A stretch of 64,000 nt of DNA from a virus. Of the stretch, positions 11,334 to 36,729 are shown in pieces. The number at the start of each line of letters is the position of its first letter. The stretch's first letter is position 1. The position numbers and the translations under genes were made by a program. The stretch is taken from the IMG/VR virus record IMGVR_UViG_3300044972_002389, positions 102,892-166,891 of that record; one strand, 5' to 3'. Under the pieces are notes generated by a model that made no database searches, was not told the origin of the DNA, and saw only the letters and a list, made by a program, of their open reading frames with translations.

Positions 11334-11360
11334 AGGCGGAAGTTATTTCCGCCTATTTTT
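11334..11360 (+). terminator. rho-independent terminator
   Basis: aggcggaa-gttat-ttccgcct 8-bp stem followed by ATTTTT. It sits between convergent genes and overlaps the last codons of the HNH gene. Confidence 0.5.
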
Positions 11361-12278
11361 AGCACTTGCAGACATTTTTCTTTTTGACTCGTCAGAATGT
11401 TTGAGACCTTGTCTGCTTTCACTGATTTTCTTTTTTGTCTCATCCGAAAGCTTGCGACCTTTGTTATTTTCGCTGATTTTCCTTTTTGTTTCTTCAGATT
11501 GAGTTTTACCCTTTTTAATCTCGCTCATTTTCTGTTTTGACAAATCGCTGTGTTTCTTTCCTTTGAACGGGTTAACCATTCCGTTGGTGTAATTCTGCTT
11601 GTTTTTTTGACGTGATTTTTCTTTTACTTCTTCGCTGCGCGGAATGCCACGGAGTTTACTGACCTTGCCCATATTGATTTGGGATAATAAGGCTCTAGTT
11701 TGCTCGGATACAATACGACCCTTCAATTTAGCTGCGCGTTTAGCCACTAATTCTAGTGGCTGTTTTTTACCTTTCAAAGCTTCTGATCTTTTTCTATTGG
11801 ACTCCTCTGAGGGAGTTCTGCCTTTGCTACTTTCTCCTATCTTCTTGCAGGTTTCTGGTGAATGTTTTCTGCCTGTCCTGACTTGTGATACCATCTTTCT
11901 GCACTTCTCATATAGAGATGCAGTAACAAAATGTGAATTTGTTCGATAACCTACCATATAATTCAGTGCATAAATCATTTTAGCTTTCGCTGAGTCAGTA
12001 GATACTATATAAATCAATAGTTGATGACATAACAAATGTTCTCTTGCTGTGAGGCGAACTAAATTCGAAGGGTCATTTGAATTTCCTTCAATCCATCCTC
12101 TTGTACCCTTCCGATTACGATGTAAAAAGAAAGAGTCAGGGACTATGTGATGTTGTTCTGTATACCCAACAAGTTGACGAATTCTTGCTGATTCAATTAT
12201 ACTGTAATACCATTGAGTGTATTTGTTGTCTAAATACGGATGGTTGATAGGCAAAGATACCCTAGGCAATAATTTCAT
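11343..12278 (-). CDS. HNH homing endonuclease with C-terminal NUMOD3 repeats
   Basis: EQHHIVPDSF...NLVRLTAREHLLCH is an HNH motif. Downstream lie 4-5 repeats of GKKHSDLSKQKMSEIKKGK/TQSEETKRKISENNKGRKLSDETKKKISE (NUMOD3-like). ATG at 12278 with AAGGAG RBS; the ORF-track start at 12374 is upstream. Confidence 0.75.
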   Translation of the reverse strand: MKLLPRVSLPINHPYLDNKYTQWYYSIIESARIRQLVGYTEQHHIVPDSFFLHRNRKGTRGWIEGNSNDPSNLVRLTAREHLLCHQLLIYIVSTDSAKAKMIYALNYMVGYRTNSHFVTASLYEKCRKMVSQVRTGRKHSPETCKKIGESSKGRTPSEESNRKRSEALKGKKQPLELVAKRAAKLKGRIVSEQTRALLSQINMGKVSKLRGIPRSEEVKEKSRQKNKQNYTNGMVNPFKGKKHSDLSKQKMSEIKKGKTQSEETKRKISENNKGRKLSDETKKKISESRQGLKHSDESKRKMSASAKNRRK

Positions 12279-12392
12279 GCTGAATGCTCCTTCATAGCGT
12301 TTAGAGCGGTCGGAGAGGTTAGAGGCTCGCGGACCGCAATTGTATTTAGTGTCAATTTTGACACGTACACACATAATTGTACAAACTCTGCT

Positions 12393-17371: not shown

Positions 17372-17379
17372 GGTCTAGG

Positions 17380-26188: not shown

Positions 26189-26560
26189 ATGACCGATGAT
26201 CTCGGAAACCTTTCTGACAATGACTTCAAGCGCCTAGTGCACCTGGTGAACGAGATCATCCACCTAAGCCACGAAGGTGCTCGAGAAGGGCAAGCTCGGG
26301 CACACGACATCTACGCACTGTCACGAGATGCACGCGACATCTTGATCCTGGACGAAACCAGTCGGGAAGCTATGCGACGCCTCACAAATACTGAACGTCC
26401 CACCATGTATGGGGTCACCATCAGCAAGTCTGTGGAAGACTATGTTCGTGCTGGCATGAAGATCAATGCCATCAAAGAGCTGCGAACTGAAACGGCTCTG
26501 GGCCTGAAAGAGGCCAAGGACGTTGTGGAGGCTTTTGCCAGCACAATTACGCCCTTTTAG
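26189..26560 (+). CDS. protein with ribosomal bL12 (L7/L12) C-terminal-domain-like segment
   Basis: C-terminal [23 protein letters not shown] versus E. coli bL12 [21 protein letters not shown], about 14 of 20 identical. The N-terminal 75 aa are unrelated and the protein ends shortly after the motif. Confidence 0.55.
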   Translation: [123 protein letters not shown]

Positions 26561-27574: not shown

Positions 27575-28786
27575 ATGAGCAAGTTCAGTTGCCCTGTGGT
27601 GCGTGTGGCCGCAGTCGAAGAACATCCGAATGCGGATCGCCTTTCTCTTGTGCGCCTTGAAGGCCTCGGTTATCTCTGCATCGCAAACAAACTAGAGGAT
27701 GGTAGCCCGCGCTACAAGCCCGGTGACTGGGTCGTATACATTCCCTCAGCCTCGGTGCTGCCTGAATGGCTGCTCAAGGACATGGGATTTTGGAACGAAG
27801 ACGCTGGTAAGGGTGTGCTGGCAGGCAGTGATGGCAACCGTGTGAAGCCACTCAAGCTGCGTGGTATTTTCAGCGAAGGTGTGCTGTATGGGCTCATTGC
27901 ATATGGTGATGACGATTGCCTTTCTGCTGATTTTGGGTCGGCGACGGATGTACATGTAGTAGGCAAAGACAGTCTTGAATATCCAGTCAAGCTAGGCGAG
28001 GATGCTGCTGCAATCTTGGGCATCACCAGGTGGGAGCCGCCCATTCCCGCTGCGATGTCTGGTGAAGTTGCCAGTGTTGCTGAGGCTGCTCTTACCTACG
28101 ATTTTCAGCGTTGGGAGAGCGTGCCTGACATCTTCGAACCTGGTGAGGTGGTGGTGGCCCAAGAAAAAATTCATGGATCTTGTACCATCATCCAGTACTT
28201 CCCAGGCATGGACCATCCCGAGATGTTCCCCGACCATGCAGGCTACCGCAGCATCACTGTCAGCAGCAAGGGACTAGGCGGTCAGGGTTTGGTGTTCAAG
28301 AACAACGAAGCCAACGCCAACAACCTCTATGTGCGGGCACTTGGCACACTGCTAGCCGACCATGACCTCGCCGGGCTCCTCCACAGGATGAGCAAGGTGG
28401 ACGGCGGTGCTCATCCGGTGGCTATCCTGGGAGAAGTTTTCGGCAAGGGCGTGCAGGACCTCGACTACGGCACCACTAAGCCCACGTTCCGGGTGTTCGA
28501 CATGCGGATCGGGCGGGAGTGGCTAAGTCCCGATGCCGTGGCCTACTGGGCAAAGGACCTGCCCTGTGTACCTACCCTCTACACTGGCCCCTTTGACCAA
28601 ACTGCCATTGAGGCTGTGAGAGACGGTGTCACAACGGTGGGTGGCACCAATGTGCGGGAAGGTGTGGTGGTGCGCAGCCTGGTTCCCACCGAGCATCCCC
28701 TGCACGGTAGGAAAATCTGCAAATTCATCTCTCCGGCGTATCTGCTCCGCCGAGTGAAGAACGGCGAGGCAACGGAGTTCAACTGA
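27575..28786 (+). CDS. ATP-dependent RNA ligase, Rnl2-like nucleotidyltransferase domain fused to N-terminal tRNA-binding OB domain
   Basis: N-terminal VAAVEEHPNADRLSLVRLEGLGYLCIANK resembles the tRNA_bind (Trbp111/EMAP-type) OB fold. VAQEKIHGSCTII matches T4 Rnl2 motif I (VAREKIHGTNFSLII). EVFGKGVQDLDYG, REGVVVR and RKICKFISP parallel motifs III to V. Confidence 0.7.
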   Translation: MSKFSCPVVRVAAVEEHPNADRLSLVRLEGLGYLCIANKLEDGSPRYKPGDWVVYIPSASVLPEWLLKDMGFWNEDAGKGVLAGSDGNRVKPLKLRGIFSEGVLYGLIAYGDDDCLSADFGSATDVHVVGKDSLEYPVKLGEDAAAILGITRWEPPIPAAMSGEVASVAEAALTYDFQRWESVPDIFEPGEVVVAQEKIHGSCTIIQYFPGMDHPEMFPDHAGYRSITVSSKGLGGQGLVFKNNEANANNLYVRALGTLLADHDLAGLLHRMSKVDGGAHPVAILGEVFGKGVQDLDYGTTKPTFRVFDMRIGREWLSPDAVAYWAKDLPCVPTLYTGPFDQTAIEAVRDGVTTVGGTNVREGVVVRSLVPTEHPLHGRKICKFISPAYLLRRVKNGEATEFN

Positions 28787-28868
28787 TGCGCTACGATCTA
28801 CTGGAGGTCTACTGCTGCCTATGCCCAAGTCCCTAGACATATTGATCCCAGAAACAGAAACTTTCTGG

Positions 28869-28896
28869 TTGACAATGTCCGGAACTGTGCTAATAT
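28869..28896 (+). promoter_or_regulatory. sigma70-type promoter (consensus family)
   Basis: TTGACA-16-TGcTAATAT, plus a second TATAAT at 28901. Confidence 0.5.
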
Positions 28897-28923
28897 GACG
28901 TATAATACATAAAGGACTAACAA

Positions 28924-29196
28924 ATGAGCGATCTCCCCAAGCCTATGTTTGCTAACGTTGGCCGCGCGTATGTGGCTGCTGCCGCGTTGGGTCTAGACAC
29001 TAGCAATCTCAGTCGTGATCGTGCTGATACTGTGCTCCGCGCGCTGGTCAAAATGCCTGGTTGGCTGGAACAAAACCTGGATGTGTATCAGATGTGGATG
29101 GCTGATGTTGACCCCTGGCATTGCTTCATCCGTGACCTGAGCGCGTACACCAAGCAAGTGCGGGCTCACACGAAAGCTACCACGCGGGCCAAGTGA
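28924..29196 (+). CDS. hypothetical protein (90 aa), moron-like cassette
   Basis: Own promoter and RBS. Flanked by direct repeats of the ligase 3' end. Confidence 0.45.
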   Translation: MSDLPKPMFANVGRAYVAAAALGLDTSNLSRDRADTVLRALVKMPGWLEQNLDVYQMWMADVDPWHCFIRDLSAYTKQVRAHTKATTRAK

Positions 29197-29208
29197 GTAT
29201 CGACTGCA

Positions 29209-29290
29209 TAGCAGGAAAATCTGCAAGTTCCTCTCTCCGTCATATCTTCTCCGACGGGTGAAGAACGGTGAAACAACAGAGTTCAACTGA
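29209..29290 (+). pseudogene. orphan 3' fragment of an RNA-ligase homologue (last about 26 codons)
   Basis: About 86% nt identity to 28705-28786. Translation RKICKFLSPSYLLRRVKNGETTEFN-stop versus GRKICKFISPAYLLRRVKNGEATEFN-stop. The differences are mostly synonymous. Confidence 0.5.
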
Positions 29291-29302
29291 GTCGGGGCCA
29301 CG

Positions 29303-29581
29303 ATGACCGAAAACTATATTCTCTTGAAATGGGGCACACTCAAGGGCTATCGGGTAGCTGACAACCCTGTGGCGCAAGGTTTGATTAAACAGTACATGGA
29401 GTTGGGTGCCAGCGCCATGCACCAACAGGACACTCCCGAACAAAAACAAATCATATGCGAACTGCTGCCTGCTCTGGCGTGCCCGCGCCGTGCCTTCCCC
29501 AACCCATACGACCCCACAGGGCTGCTGCACTGGATCGCAACCCAGGAGCCGGTCATTCTCGGACGCGACCCCGCTGGCTAG
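29303..29581 (+). CDS. hypothetical ORF spanning the low-GC/high-GC junction
   Basis: GC content rises sharply inside this ORF from about 29450. It may be a junction artefact. Confidence 0.3.
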   Translation: MTENYILLKWGTLKGYRVADNPVAQGLIKQYMELGASAMHQQDTPEQKQIICELLPALACPRRAFPNPYDPTGLLHWIATQEPVILGRDPAG

Positions 29582-30745
29582 CCGGCTGGCCATTTCAGGA
29601 TGCCGCCATGTCACGCCGCTTTCTCGTTACCGGAGGTGCCGGCTTCGTCGGCAGCCATCTCGTCGCCGCCCTGCTGGACCAAGGCGCGGAGGTGGTGGTG
29701 TTCGACAACCTGCGCACCGGCCATCGCGAAGCCGTGCTCCCCGGCGCCACGCTGGTCACCGGCGCGCTGGAGGACCCCGATGCGATCGCGTCCGTGCTGG
29801 CGCAGGGGCCGTGGCATGCGGTGTTCCACTTCGCCGCGCTGTCGCTGGTGGGCGATTCCATGCGCGACCCGATCGGCTATCTCTCGGCCAATGTCGGCAA
29901 CGGCCTGCGCCTGTTGGAGGCCTGCGTGAAGCACGGCGTGCCCCGCTTCGTGTTCTCCTCCACCGCCGCCCTGTTCGGCACGCCAGACCGCATGCCGATC
30001 GACGAGGAAACCGCGATCGACCCCGGCTCACCCTACGGCGAAAGCAAATGGATGATGGAGCGCGCGCTGGGCTGGGCCGAACGCATCCACGGCATGCGCT
30101 CCGCCTGCCTGCGCTACTTCAACGCCGCCGGCGCCGACCCGCAGGGCCGCCTGGGCGAGGACCACACGCCGGAAACCCATCTGATCCCGTTGGCCATCGA
30201 CGCCATGCTCGGCCGTCGCGCCGAACTCGCCGTGTTTGGCACCGATTACGACACGCCGGACGGCACCTGCATCCGCGACTACATCCATGTCACCGACCTC
30301 GCCGCCGCCCACCTCGCGGCGCTGGAGCGGCTGGACCACGCCAGCGTCACCTACAACCTCGGCACCGCCGCCGGGCATTCGGTGCTGGAGGTGATCCAGA
30401 GCGTGGAGCGCGTCAGCCGCCGCCCGGTGCCGCACCGCTTCGCCCCACGCCGCCCTGGCGACCCCGCCCGCCTTGTTGCCAGCCCGGCGCGGATCATGCG
30501 CGAAACCGGCTGGCAGCCGCGCCTCGCAGCACTGGATGACATCGTCGCCACCGCCCTGGCCTGGCGCGAAGCCCATCCGCGCGGCTACGGCGGATGAGTT
30601 ACCGCATCCCGGCGCATCGGCCTGTGCGTGTTCTCAGAAGTGCATTTTTCACCTACTTATGTCCTCATCCGCCCAGCCGCCGCAGCGAGGACCGCCACGC
30701 CATGAGCCAGCCTGCCGCGACCACGGTCGCCAAGAACCTGGGCGC
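29450..30745 (+). other. high-GC (about 70%) island of foreign origin carrying galE
   Basis: Abrupt compositional shift relative to the roughly 45% GC flanks. It contains intact galE plus about 150 bp of donor 3' flank with a truncated downstream start (MSQPAATTVAKNLGA). Confidence 0.6.
29608..30597 (+). CDS. galE: UDP-glucose 4-epimerase
   Basis: LVTGGAGFVGSH Rossmann motif, YGESK catalytic Y-x-x-x-K, and full-length SDR-extended GalE architecture. High-GC codon usage. ATG at 29608; the ORF-track start at 29455 is upstream. Confidence 0.85.
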   Translation: MSRRFLVTGGAGFVGSHLVAALLDQGAEVVVFDNLRTGHREAVLPGATLVTGALEDPDAIASVLAQGPWHAVFHFAALSLVGDSMRDPIGYLSANVGNGLRLLEACVKHGVPRFVFSSTAALFGTPDRMPIDEETAIDPGSPYGESKWMMERALGWAERIHGMRSACLRYFNAAGADPQGRLGEDHTPETHLIPLAIDAMLGRRAELAVFGTDYDTPDGTCIRDYIHVTDLAAAHLAALERLDHASVTYNLGTAAGHSVLEVIQSVERVSRRPVPHRFAPRRPGDPARLVASPARIMRETGWQPRLAALDDIVATALAWREAHPRGYGG

Positions 30746-30885
30746 ATGACGCTGGAAGTCCTGCATGGAGTTTCCCAACCAAGAAACTTATCTGCAATGT
30801 TTGCTCACATGGAGTTGACGGCATCTGTGAGTCTGTTGCGTGTGATACAATGTACCAACACCCTCTCTATGGACGGAGATAAAAA

Positions 30886-30914
30886 GGTTGACACAGTCTG
30901 TCTGTGCTGTATAT
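30886..30914 (+). promoter_or_regulatory. sigma70-type promoter (consensus family)
   Basis: GGTTGACA-17-TGTATATT, then AAGGAG RBS and ATG 30940. Confidence 0.45.
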
Positions 30915-30939
30915 TGAAGCTACACAAGGAGAACAACAA

Positions 30940-31422
30940 ATGGAAGCCACGCCTGATCTAGCTGTCTACGTGCTGGCCCGAACTGATCTGCCCAGTATGA
31001 ACCCAGGAAAGCTGGCTGCACAAGTACATCATGCTGGAACCCAGATGATGAGCCTATTTGCAGATCATCCACTAGTTCAACAGTATGTTGCCGACGGTGT
31101 CTCACAAGGTGCCTACTACTTCAACACCACAATTGTGCTGGGTGCCACAATGGACCAGCTTCATGGTCTGAGATGCACTTATGGTTGGGAATACCACCTC
31201 ACTGTCAAGGGGTCAGTCGTCGACCCCAGCTACCCATTTTTTGTGGAAAATCAAGAGGTAGCTGATCTTGTTGCAGCTAATGGCAAGGCAGCTGTCATCA
31301 AAACCATGGATGATGGGCGTGTGCTGATGACTCGCCAAGAGACCACTTGCATTTGGTGCCTTGTGGATCGCAACAAGCCCGAAGTTTCAGACATTCTAGG
31401 CCATCTCAAACTCTATCCCTAA
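30940..31422 (+). CDS. PTH2-like (peptidyl-tRNA hydrolase 2 family) protein
   Basis: LAVYVLARTDLPSMNPGKLAAQVHHAG parallels the PTH2 N-terminal motif MVLVVRxDLxMGKGKIAAQxxHA. The remainder is divergent. Confidence 0.45.
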   Translation: MEATPDLAVYVLARTDLPSMNPGKLAAQVHHAGTQMMSLFADHPLVQQYVADGVSQGAYYFNTTIVLGATMDQLHGLRCTYGWEYHLTVKGSVVDPSYPFFVENQEVADLVAANGKAAVIKTMDDGRVLMTRQETTCIWCLVDRNKPEVSDILGHLKLYP

Positions 31423-33083: not shown

Positions 33084-33364
33084 CAGAAGACAGAGTCTTC
33101 CACAATGCGCTGCTTTTGTTTCCCAAAGATCTTTTCTGCTGCTCTGTTACACTTGGCGAGGAATACTACCGCCAACAATACGAAATCTTGGATTGGCTAC
33201 GCCAACAAGGACCTGGTGACACTGGAATTGGTGATCCACCACAAGGTGAGTGCGTTTGGGCATATACACAGCTTTTTGGATACCAGTATATCGCTTTCCC
33301 CACTAGGGAACTGGTGACGCATTTTCAGCTGGTTTGGCAAAACAACACAGGACATAGTGGTTGA
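33056..33364 (+). CDS. possible LTW-family relative
   Basis: C-terminus FPTRELVTHFQLVWQN resembles the family motif. Cys/Trp-rich. Confidence 0.4.
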   Translation: MEFHCDSQVTEDRVFHNALLLFPKDLFCCSVTLGEEYYRQQYEILDWLRQQGPGDTGIGDPPQGECVWAYTQLFGYQYIAFPTRELVTHFQLVWQNNTGHSG

Positions 33365-33389
33365 CACGGATGTGCAGACTCTGTATGTT
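33361..33389 (+). promoter_or_regulatory. candidate sigma70-type promoter
   Basis: TTGACA-17-TGTATGTT, then AAGGAG and ATG 33414. Confidence 0.4.
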
Positions 33390-33413
33390 GTGGGTGTTGC
33401 AAAGGAGACGGAT

Positions 33414-34139
33414 ATGCGAATTGATGTGCCCAGCATCGTAAATGATCCCCAGATGAGAACCTTGCCCTATTGGCTGGAGGTATATCCCAATCAGGATCAA
33501 GCTCGCCGGGCTCGAGCACTGGCTCGCAAGGCGTATGATCGCACACGGCTAGCTGAGGTGCAGCGTTGGCGCTGCTGCTGGTGTCACTGCGAGATGCGTG
33601 GCGAACAAGGCTTCAAGAACAGTGCCACCATTGAGCACATCACTCCTCGCAGTTGTGGTGGCACTGACCACATCACCAACTTGGCTGTGGCGTGTGGCCG
33701 ATGCAACAACCGTCGAGGCAACACGCCCTGGGAAGATTTCCTGCAGGCTATGGAAATGAGTCGGCCCGCGCCTGAGACTGGCAGCTTTCGCTCACTGGCT
33801 TTTGAACGTAAGATGCGCCGAGAGGCTGCTGAGCAGAACAAGCGCATCAAGCAGTTGACTCATTTGGTGCGCAACCACGAGGTGCAAGCCACTGCTACTC
33901 AAACGCGACGCGAACAGTGCAAGTCACTGGAAGCCCAATACTCAGACATGCTGCCAGGATTGCAGCTGGCTGGTTTCCAACGAGCCAAGAGGATGCGTCG
34001 CGAAGTTGACCGTCAACTGGCACTGCAAGCCCTCTCACAAAAGGTCAGCAACCCTTTTGAAGTGGACAGTCGGCCCTGGCGCATCTACGAGCGTATGCGT
34101 AACAAGCAGAGTGTTGACACACTGCAAGCAGCCGCTTAA
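33414..34139 (+). CDS. HNH endonuclease
   Basis: CCWCHCEM...ATIEHITPRSCGGTDHITNLAVACGRCNNRRGN is an HNH motif with a C4 zinc site. ATG at 33414; the ORF-track start at 33357 is a GTG. Confidence 0.7.
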   Translation: MRIDVPSIVNDPQMRTLPYWLEVYPNQDQARRARALARKAYDRTRLAEVQRWRCCWCHCEMRGEQGFKNSATIEHITPRSCGGTDHITNLAVACGRCNNRRGNTPWEDFLQAMEMSRPAPETGSFRSLAFERKMRREAAEQNKRIKQLTHLVRNHEVQATATQTRREQCKSLEAQYSDMLPGLQLAGFQRAKRMRREVDRQLALQALSQKVSNPFEVDSRPWRIYERMRNKQSVDTLQAAA

Positions 34140-35511: not shown

Positions 35512-36729
35512 ATGCACTACACGTTTCCCGAGATCACGCACCTGGATCAAGTGCTGGAAGCTGTCCAGGGTGTGGAAGGCTTCATTGTAGCCCAGCGGCC
35601 CTGGGGCACTGTGGTCAACTACATTCAGATGGGCCCGGACATGTTCCCCGAGGTCCATACTGCTGGAGGCAGCGCCAGCATGCGCGAGCGGCAGACTCGA
35701 CTCAAGGCTATCCGCCGGGAGTGTAGGGGGCTGCTGTTCAGCCTTGATGGAAAGTTGGTGAGCCGCGCATTTCAGAAGTTTTGGAACGTGGGCGAACGGC
35801 GCGAGACTTTGATTGAAAACATCGATCTCACTCAGCCACACATCATCCTTGAGAAGTTGGATGGAAGTATGATTCGTGCTCTACCTCTAGGTAAGGGCTA
35901 CTGTCTTGCAACCAAGATGGGGCCCACTGCTGTAGCAGCACAGGTTGAGCCGTTCGTGGCAACTCGAGACAACTATGACCGATTTATCCGAGACACACTG
36001 GAGCAGGGATACACTGCCTGTTTCGAGTGGTGTACTCGTCAACAAAAGATTGTGTGTGATTATCCAGTTGATCGACTGGTGCTGACTGCTGTGCGTCACA
36101 TCAACTCGGGTGAGTATCTCACCTACTCTCAGATGCAGGAACTGGCGGCCGAGTATGAGCTGGATCTAGTCAAGGCCTATCCTGGTACTGTGGCTAGCAT
36201 GGAGCAGCTCGTTCGGGAGACGCATGAGCTGGAAGGCGAGGAGGGGTGGATCATCCGGTGGGATGATGGACATATGGCCAAGTTGAAATCGGCCTGGTAT
36301 GTGCGTATCCACCGTGCCAAGGATGCTCTCACGCAGGAGAAGAACCTCATCGACCTCATGCTGGCGGAAAAGCTGGACGACGTCAAGAGCTTTCTGCCTG
36401 TGGAGGACCTGGCTCGCATCGACGCCTACGAGAACGCCTTCTGGACGGGTGTGGGGCAAACTGCCTACATATGGAAGGACCAGTATGTCAAGCTCCGGCG
36501 GCAGTTTGGTGACGATAGAAAGCGGTTTGCACTGGAGGCAGCACCGGGTCTTGAGCCCAACCTGCGTAGTGCTGTGTTCAAGGTCTGGGCCCGTGAGGGC
36601 CACGTGGACTGGCGTGAGCTGGTGTGCGATGTGATCCGCAAATGCACTGGCACGCAGACCCGGGTGGACGAGGCACGCTCACTGTTCCGTGCGCCGCGGT
36701 GGAGCCAGCAAAGTGTGGGAGACGAATGA
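35512..36729 (+). CDS. rnlA: T4 Rnl1-family RNA ligase
   Basis: Collinear matches to T4 Rnl1: [25 protein letters not shown] vs [40 protein letters not shown] vs ILTKEDGSLV (motif I KxDG); [19 protein letters not shown] vs [43 protein letters not shown] vs [24 protein letters not shown]. Confidence 0.8.
   Translation: [405 protein letters not shown]

Follow-up and report, generated by a model that had tools for sequence, protein, structure and literature searches.

The 64,000-nt window analysed here (positions 102,892 to 166,891 of IMG/VR virus record IMGVR_UViG_3300044972_002389) carries an RNA ligase gene followed by a small promoter-bearing open reading frame (ORF90) and then by a second, partial copy of the ligase 3' end, itself followed by another small gene (ORF92) and by a GC-rich island with galE. 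This partial copy, hereafter A2 (its counterpart within the intact ligase gene being A1), is the subject of our analysis, which points to a scar left by recombination in an uncultured phage. The ligase combines an N-terminal PHA02142 OB domain with an RNA_ligase nucleotidyltransferase domain (PF09414 at 1e-18; phrog_968 at 2e-31), the match to the OB domain family PF21189 reaching 26.3 bits, slightly below the cut-off of 27. It belongs to a large family, with 1698 homologues forming a graded identity series and named TIGR02306/DRB0094-type by their sources. No close DNA relatives were found in INPHARED, where ligases are at most 38% identical, and the relatives discussed below (L-numbered loci) were taken from IMG/VR and from metagenomes.

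The repeated ligase 3' end

A repeat search of the window revealed an ungapped direct repeat of 96 nt, its two copies spanning 28691-28786 (A1) and 29195-29290 (A2), so that A2 sits 504 nt downstream of A1. The copies match at 79 of 96 bases (82%), with a longest identical run of 14 nt (AGGAAAATCTGCAA), and this alignment is far beyond chance: the binomial tail for such a match is 9e-32, or ~2e-22 once corrected for all position pairs of the window, and blastn independently recovered the two copies with E = 3e-23. Outside the repeat, the flanks show no similarity (4-7 matches per 10-30 nt), and the ligase similarity of A2 at the protein level begins two codons earlier than the nucleotide repeat, at 29189 (P-S-E). 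The repeat of the ligase 3' end reported in the initial annotation is thus real, and the similarity that it described between 28705-28786 and 29209-29290 stands, with an identity that has to be corrected from about 86% to 83% (68/82 bases). As had also been noticed, the second copy keeps the reading frame and the TGA stop while lacking the rest of the ligase, and the substitutions are mostly synonymous: we estimated 11 synonymous versus 6 non-synonymous changes, and the differences fall 5/1/11 on codon positions 1/2/3. Since contigs assembled independently from NCBI, JGI, ENA and Logan samples carry the ligase-ORF90-A2 arrangement with 100% identity, the repeat is not an assembly artefact.

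Table 1. Features between the RNA ligase gene and the right border of the galE island, in window coordinates
Feature	Position	Strand	Basis or remark
RNA ligase gene, 403 aa	27575-28786	+	Pfam, PHROG, homologues
A1 (copy 1), functional last 31 ligase codons and stop	28691-28786	+	repeat search
B1, relic of the 5' end of a DUF6980-family gene (MRYDLLEVYCCLCPSP*)	28786-28836	+	aligned with intact gene starts
Core of the ORF90 module: upstream region, promoter, ribosome-binding site and ORF90 codons 1-82	28832-29170	+	shared with L007/L008
Predicted sigma-70-type promoter, TTGACA-16-TG-n-TAATAT	28869-28896	+	consensus match only, 10/12 with TG
ORF90, small all-helical protein (predicted)	28924-29196	+	ORF call, AlphaFold2 model
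A2 (copy 2), probable non-coding relic of the ligase 3' end	29189-29290	+	nucleotide repeat from 29195, protein similarity from 29189
ORF92	29303-29581	+	native part 29303-29465; C-terminus from 29466 is GC-rich island sequence
GC-rich (~70%) island with galE (coding sequence 29608-30597)	29466-30763	+	composition; Pfam Epimerase 4e-57
Relic 3' end (MEFPNQETYLQCLLTWS*) of the gene displaced by the galE island	30765-30818	+	intact end in L001 (ORF ending at 2341)

Several observations indicate that A2 no longer belongs to a gene. On the upstream side, its frame ends at a TGA (29138-29140); it offers no start before a GTG located 10 codons from its end and contains no ORF of 25 aa or more. An ORF overlapping A2 is open in L001, an IMG/VR contig that is ~87% identical to the window and displays the ligase-ORF90-A2-ORF88 order without galE, and this ORF is closed in the window by the stop just mentioned, so that it is not conserved. 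In other relatives, A2 carries an in-frame TAG and an 11-nt deletion (L004), a 31-nt deletion (L010) or many radical non-synonymous changes (P to L, A to D and others, in L009), and about half of the changes that separate the A2 copies of the window, L001 and L041 are non-synonymous (4-6 synonymous versus 5-7 non-synonymous). Neither A2 nor the neighbouring B1 element matched any Rfam family or showed excess folding stability (z-scores of -0.3 to -0.6). Altogether, A2 displays the features by which pseudogene fragments are recognised, namely partial similarity to a gene without its start, decay in relatives and the existence of relatives with a duplication-free layout; by sequence comparison, it is therefore probably what recombination has left of the ligase 3' end, a relic without function.

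The ligase tails from which such a relic could derive are diverse. In the population, they form a mosaic of a few alternative blocks, even inside one 90%-identity cluster, and the C-terminal allele found in A1 (RKICKF...RRVKNGEATEFN) is one among many such mosaic alleles. A gene conversion from A2 to A1 had been considered, since the A1 of the window shares RKICKF and EFN with A2, unlike the A1 of L001; it was rejected because RKICKF and EFN are common alleles of functional ligases in the population.

The module between the two copies

The first element behind A1 is B1, a mini-ORF of 16 codons; its ATG and the stop of the ligase overlap in the sequence TGATG. B1 can be aligned to the 5' ends of intact genes located 3' of the ligase or of a ligase tail in L013, L021, L010 and L004, the L010 gene being a DUF6980 gene (PF22400 at 1.6e-14). 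B1 and the intact DUF6980 gene starts share the pattern M-x-Y-(D/I)-L...(Y/F)-C-C together with the TGATG overlap, and 23 of the first 33 nt of B1 match the L004 and L010 gene starts, as counted on the alignment; blastn aligned window positions 28769-28817 with L004 at 79.6% over 49 nt. This homology reaches ~28820, which corresponds to a 13-codon relic. Since B1 matches the starts of DUF6980 genes that follow ligases, it appears to be the stump of the gene that stood behind the incoming ligase.

Further downstream, the promoter proposed in the initial annotation was reproduced by consensus match as a predicted TTGACA-16-TAATAT site with TG. It is conserved in all relatives, including in front of a free-standing ORF90 homologue that is described below. 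A family of such plus-strand sites, (T/G)GGTTGACA-N14-16-TGCTATA(A/T/C)T, was found ~40-60 nt upstream of gene starts at 17377, 19588, 26570, 27512, 28866, 30885, 33358, 35453 and 37811, which suggests that many small genes have promoters of their own, which would be read by a host polymerase of the sigma-70 type. A weak 7-bp AT-rich hairpin (CCAGAAA/TTTCTGG) located upstream of the -35 element is not conserved in L007 (z = -0.54), and no terminator-like site was detected on the + strand between 28924 and 30597. The GC content over 28650-29400 (0.49-0.55) resembles that of neighbouring phage genes, and only the galE island deviates.

The 90-aa ORF that had been called between the copies is ORF90. 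AlphaFold2 models its product as all-helical (predicted local distance difference test score, pLDDT, of 73.8); the protein has no match in Pfam, PHROG or PDB, and a profile search returned only small unannotated proteins. Its family comprises 7 clusters when searched by word index and 15 representatives when searched by profile, of 92-125 aa and without annotation. ORF90 stops at a TGA (29194-29196) that runs into the start of the repeat; since the ligase protein similarity starts at 29189, the last codon or codons of ORF90 and this stop come from sequence of ligase origin that is read in a different frame. In L007/L008, a 121-aa homologue with the same promoter is found in an unrelated neighbourhood with no ligase sequence on either side; L007 shares only the core of the module with the window (86% over 339 nt by blastn) and continues 31 codons further. 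Because this homologue extends past the end of ORF90 and remote homologues mostly run 5-30 residues beyond it, ORF90 is most likely 3'-truncated, its stop being the first out-of-frame one in the relic. The self-contained cassette of the initial description does have a predicted promoter, but it is not a clean one, since it contains a DUF6980 stump and a truncated gene. A unit of 12 nt (ACGAAAGCTAAC; K-A-x-T) at the 3' end of ORF90 (29166-29193) also varies in copy number among relatives (L009, L010), and the C-termini read AHMRAK, AHTKATTRAK and AHTKANTKAKTKAK.

Arrangements of the locus in relatives

We fetched the contexts of relatives and used tblastn and blastn to map their parts, from the conserved ligase up to a conserved block made of a PTH2-like gene, a 42-aa ORF and a Band_7 gene. 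In L039/L040, L015 and L023, the ligase is directly followed by an ORF92 homologue, often with a TGATG overlap, which is probably the ancestral arrangement that the initial annotation had proposed to look for in relatives. The gene that directly follows the ligase in L013/14 and L021 is instead the DUF6980 gene (PF22400), again with TGATG, and L042/43 carry another small gene between the ligase and DUF6980. B1-ORF90-A2 follows the ligase in the window, L001, L009 and L052, and B1-ORF86-A2 does so in L004-6 and L012, with a DUF6980 gene then present from its start. In L041, the ligase is followed by a nucleotidyltransferase gene with its own hairpin terminator, by a ~19-nt relic of the ligase tail and then by B1-ORF90-A2-ORF88-galE. 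L037/38 and L010 contain a GIY-YIG/NUMOD3 homing endonuclease gene on the opposite strand that overlaps the ligase end, followed by a fusion of the 14 first codons of an ORF92-type gene with a ligase tail (its last 30 nt), by B1-ORF90-A2 and by more genes. In L011, two genes (349 and 149 aa) precede a 75-80-nt relic of the ligase tail with a different left junction and an ORF92 homologue. The interval from the ligase to the PTH2-like gene is as short as 0.66 kb in L039 and as long as 2.9 kb in L041, and at least eight different gene contents were counted in it, which supports the proposal of a recombination hotspot at this site.

These comparisons also indicate where A2 comes from. Window positions 29211-29468, which include A2 and the 5' part of ORF92, align with positions 4660-4920 of L039 as one block (73.5% over 268 nt). 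Since A2 and ORF92 are thereby collinear with the ligase 3' end and the ORF92 homologue of L039, A2 would be the tail of a ligase that formerly abutted ORF92. Together with the third-position bias, this collinearity supports the initial view of the scar as the 3' end of a diverged ligase allele beside a promoter-bearing small gene. The right junction between ORF90 and A2 (J2), GC(T/C)AAGTGA(G/C)(T/C)AT, is the same in the window, L001, L009, L010, L004, L037 and L041, and so is the left junction between B1 and the module (J1); considering that both junctions recur in at least six related lineages, at loci whose ligases are down to 73% identical to that of the window, the scar appears to have arisen once and to be old. 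The A2 copies of the window, L001 and L041 are closest to the ligase tail of the window/L009 type, that of L037 is closest to the L015/L023 tail type and the relic of L011 is closest to the L039 type.

Independent tail relics are found at the same site in L011 (behind ORF349-ORF149), L041 (the ~19-nt tail behind the nucleotidyltransferase gene and its terminator) and L037/L010 (the 30-nt tail), so that, with J2, at least four independent junctions lie in the last ~100 nt of the ligase; L010 may display a fifth one. At the L037/L010 junction, the ORF92-type gene (..CTCAAGGGCTAT..) and the ligase tail (..GTCAAGGGCGGC..) are joined within a shared 8-nt microhomology, TCAAGGGC, and illegitimate, microhomology-guided joining at this site is thus directly visible.

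On the right side of the scar, ORF92 begins 12 bases past the A2 stop. The galE island does not follow the second copy immediately, as had been described initially: ORF92 intervenes and the island starts at ~29466. The island stands in place of 328 nt of L001, including the last ~33 codons of ORF92. L001 and L039 lack it, whereas L041 carries it at 98.3% nucleotide identity versus 85-89% in the flanks. Since L041 has an intact ORF88 upstream of the island, its left island junction differs from that of the window. Several independent assemblies break inside this island, which, judging from these comparisons, appears to be one more variable insert in the hyperplastic region between the ligase and the PTH2-like gene. 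The relic gene end at the right border of the island (30765-30818) displays a C-terminal motif, FPNQETYxxCxLTWS*, that was also found twice in tandem, flanking short inserts, in L041 (4696-4744 and 4921-4969) and in L011 (7932-7986 and 8149-8201). These sequences may be further tail relics, forming a second set, or else come from a family of paralogous small genes whose tail is conserved.

Other genes and relatives deserve mention. Upstream of the ligase, a 123-aa protein (26189-26560) shows a C-terminal match to the ribosomal L7/L12 C-terminal domain (PF00542, 2e-7), and its gene is kept upstream of the ligase in relatives. The PTH2-like gene lies at 30904-31422, and a second RNA ligase, of the T4 Rnl1 type (PF09511, 7e-26), is encoded at 35512-36729, 7 kb downstream of the first one, with an HNH endonuclease gene (33357-34139) between the two. 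Thg1 and HD_4 domains occur in the syntenic part of L039; from these domain matches, the two ligases and the PTH2-like gene, with Thg1 and HD_4 in L039, look like an RNA-repair/tRNA-maintenance cluster. A 343-aa protein encoded on the - strand (11343-12374) has three NUMOD3 motifs (1e-25) and is 38% identical over 100 aa to the endonuclease at the L037 junction, for which no solved-structure relatives were found by sequence. The ligase of L026 shows an intein-like insertion (CLHADSLV...) directly after its EKAHG motif (L026 4001-4909 and 5839-5967). In L027-29 (L027 520-2655), the ligase is split into one ORF for the OB domain and another for the catalytic domain, separated by a GIY-YIG-type gene of 316 aa, the N-terminal ligase piece being ~80% identical to the window ligase and the C-terminal piece only ~51%.

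Origin of the scar

We consider it likely that A2 is the dead tail of a ligase that once lay directly upstream of ORF92 and that was displaced by misaligned recombination. The ancestral layout would have been a ligase followed by ORF92 (as in L039/L040, L015 and L023) or by a DUF6980 gene (as in L013/14 and L021), often through TGATG. One misaligned, largely non-homologous crossover would then have joined two pieces: a left piece with an intact ligase, the 13 first DUF6980 codons, the promoter and an ORF90 cut near its 3' end, and a right piece that runs from codon ~371 of a diverged ligase allele into the downstream genes of that genome. The product would contain one intact ligase (A1), an added promoter-driven small gene that ends at the first out-of-frame stop within the relic, and the old tail A2 as a direct repeat of 96-99 nt. 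We infer this order of events, as well as a crossover between two different genomes, from the layouts described above. The largely deleted ligase homologue suggested in the initial annotation is retained here as the tail of a diverged allele; a former second full-length ligase is not, as nothing in the data points to one and a single misaligned crossover gives the same product. The 5/1/11 bias and the 11:6 excess of synonymous changes indicate that the two tails diverged as parts of working genes and not by decay in place. Since A2 is short and ~18% diverged from A1, it would be a poor substrate for deletion by homologous recombination and could thus persist while decaying slowly. Still homologous to the ligase tails of co-infecting relatives, it may also serve as a crossover site, which would explain why its distal part is of different allele types and why its downstream neighbours differ between lineages, with later ordinary homologous exchanges taking place inside A2 and A1. 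The ORF90 promoter would now drive ORF90-A2-ORF92-galE.

Several points weigh against this account. The relatives are metagenomic contigs, some of them short (1.7 kb for L010), and individual arrangements could be assembly chimeras, the layout of L010 being corroborated by the 135-kb contig behind L037. The breakpoints at J1 and J2 cannot be placed to the nucleotide, and J2 shows no clear microhomology. Two orders of events would be compatible with the data: the insert may have entered a ligase-DUF6980 genome first (the L004 layout), with a later exchange inside A2 with a ligase-ORF92 genome, or the reverse may have happened. Finally, the A2 frame and its stop are intact in the window, L001 and L041, and the central 47 nt of A2 are identical between the window and L001, which could hint at residual constraint or else at a recent origin. 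These two observations, together with a gap to the ORF92 start that resembles the native ligase-ORF92 spacing, would also fit a functional A2, either translated (by frameshift from ORF90 or as a small ORF of its own) or serving ORF92 as a regulatory or RNA element. However, A2 has no start codon, and no ORF is conserved, since its upstream stop is present in the window and not in L001; considering also the stops or indels seen in L004, L010 and L011 and the results of the Rfam and folding analyses, we regard a functional A2 as very unlikely.

Other routes could have led to a ligase tail on both sides of the module. A linear fragment with the promoter and a truncated ORF90 may have been inserted in situ through staggered junctions, which would have duplicated ~140 nt (the ligase tail plus the DUF6980 gene start) on both sides and left A2 to decay neutrally. 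L004 looks like the primary product expected from such an event, since A1-B1-module-A2 is followed there by DUF6980 from its start codon, such that the ligase tail and the gene start occur twice in the same order. Neutral decay, however, predicts mostly non-synonymous changes, contrary to the codon-position bias and the synonymous excess between A1 and A2; moreover, the A2 of the window abuts ORF92 and not DUF6980, the A2 copies of other lineages match other functional alleles, and at least one later homologous exchange inside A2 would be needed anyway. In situ insertion is thus an unlikely explanation for the locus as it stands: it could account for an initial step, but it does not explain where the A2 sequence seen today comes from. 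A circle with a ligase tail, B1, the promoter, ORF90 and J2 could alternatively have integrated in the ligase 3' end of a related phage by a single Campbell-type crossover that recombination between A1 and A2 would reverse. Such a process would account for a module with a ligase tail on both sides, identical J1 and J2 and different left and right neighbours, as well as for the A2 frame and stop kept in the window, L001 and L041, since an A1 x A2 crossover would regenerate an intact ligase beside ORF92; mini-circles between flanking repeats are documented in T4-type phages (PMC2839356). Yet, contigs with the exact ligase or ORF90 of the window were not seen to differ in the presence or absence of the module, the A2-type C-terminus that excision would leave as a footprint (FLSPSY, GETTEFN) was found in 0 of 130 ligase homologues, and the left junctions of L041 and L037 are non-homologous. 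The synonymous divergence of ORF90 is also close to that of the ligase in 4/5 comparisons, so that the module looks mostly vertically inherited. We hold the Campbell-type route to be rather improbable. A recent horizontal spread of the module was considered and dropped, its expected signature of a lower synonymous divergence than the ligase being weakly hinted at in L004 only (0.77 versus 0.63 identical codons).

The clustering of junctions may also have a driver. A GIY-YIG/NUMOD3 enzyme that cuts endonuclease-free genomes in or near their ligase tail, with imprecise repair yielding recurrent junctions including that of A2, would fit the gene that overlaps the ligase 3' end on the opposite strand in L037/L038 and L010 (NUMOD3 3.6e-11; phrog_314 and phrog_655, 'homing endonuclease'), the at least four independent junctions found within ~100 nt, the highly mosaic ligase tails and the distant ligases with an intein (L026) or split by a GIY-YIG gene (L027-29). 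No endonuclease gene was found at the window locus itself (27.5-31 kb), though, the nearest ones lying at 11343-12374 and 33357-34139, and no cleavage site is known; survivorship alone could also cluster junctions, if recombinants are lost unless their ligase is intact and their repeat short and diverged. Survivorship and endonuclease breaks are mutually compatible causes, and cleavage would in any case be a driver and not an alternative identity for A2; we hold this explanation to be doubtful. The geometry of a duplicated target 3' end with the gene kept intact would equally suit the attL/attR pair (left and right attachment sites) of an integrative element that would recombine site-specifically at the ligase 3' end and bring a replacement tail. 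Considering that no integrase or recombinase domain was found in the larger ORFs scanned over ~20.6-36.7 kb (not every ORF was scanned), that the insert is ~400 nt long with one small ORF, that A1 and A2 share no core beyond their longest identical run of 14 nt and that junction positions differ among relatives, an attachment-site origin is extremely improbable. On a more speculative note, the last ~100 nt of the ligase could be a preferred entry point for new genes, through endonuclease breaks and/or small-circle capture; modules would then be added on the left and older tails pushed to the right, perhaps producing a 'stratigraphy' of nested relics, with up to three of them in L010/L037.

The locus can be compared with known systems. 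In tailed phages, morons and mosaic junctions are generated by illegitimate recombination, according to the Hendrix-Juhala model. Like a moron, ORF90 is a small gene with its own predicted sigma-70-type promoter, located between genes that are adjacent in relatives, with non-homologous or microhomology-based junctions (8 nt in L037/L010) and gene fragments at the joints. Unlike a moron, it lacks a terminator behind it, is not foreign in composition and is truncated at its 3' end, and the joint lies inside a gene tail with a 96-nt direct repeat instead of at a clean gene boundary. Integrative elements duplicate the 3' end of their target gene, at attachment sites in tRNA, tmRNA or protein genes. 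The direct repeat of a target 3' end, the intact gene and the displaced tail on the far side are alike here, whereas no integrase was found in the scanned ORFs, there is no identical core, the insert is only 0.4 kb long and the junctions vary in relatives. Free-standing homing endonuclease loci of T4-like phages, with seg or mob genes, are local recombination hotspots. The GIY-YIG/NUMOD3 gene of relatives located exactly at this junction, next to a highly mosaic gene end, is reminiscent of these loci, while the window locus is without an endonuclease gene and cleavage there is putative.

Modular shuffling mediated by promoter early stem-loop elements (PeSLs), which have been contrasted with morons (PMC2839356), was described for the hyperplastic regions of T4-type phages (Arbiol et al. 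2010, PMC2839356; PMC4122927). The present locus is similarly a hyperplastic region of small ORFans with strong conserved predicted sigma-70-like promoters and conserved bounding genes, and its flanking repeats could mediate excision or insertion. It differs from PeSL-mediated modules in that the flanking repeat is a relic of coding sequence and not a promoter/stem-loop element, in that no stable stem-loop or terminator accompanies the promoter, and in that the promoter is found only on the left of the module, its right flank being the ligase relic and the next promoter of the family lying at 30885. Lacking the stem-loop or terminator and the same element on both flanks, the module was rejected as a PeSL cassette.

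Altogether, this is a scar of a familiar kind that is unusually well documented, and it involves no new mechanism. For annotation, it means that A2 and the 16-codon B1 mini-ORF should not be called genes and that ORF90 should be recorded as a truncated form. J1, J2 and the tail relics are markers with which the history of this phage group can be reconstructed. More generally, the locus offers a sequence-level example of how a hyperplastic region may grow in a large (about 330 kb) uncultured phage: a promoter-driven ORFan would be added by misaligned recombination, the essential-looking neighbour would stay intact, and a relic would be left behind as a landing pad.

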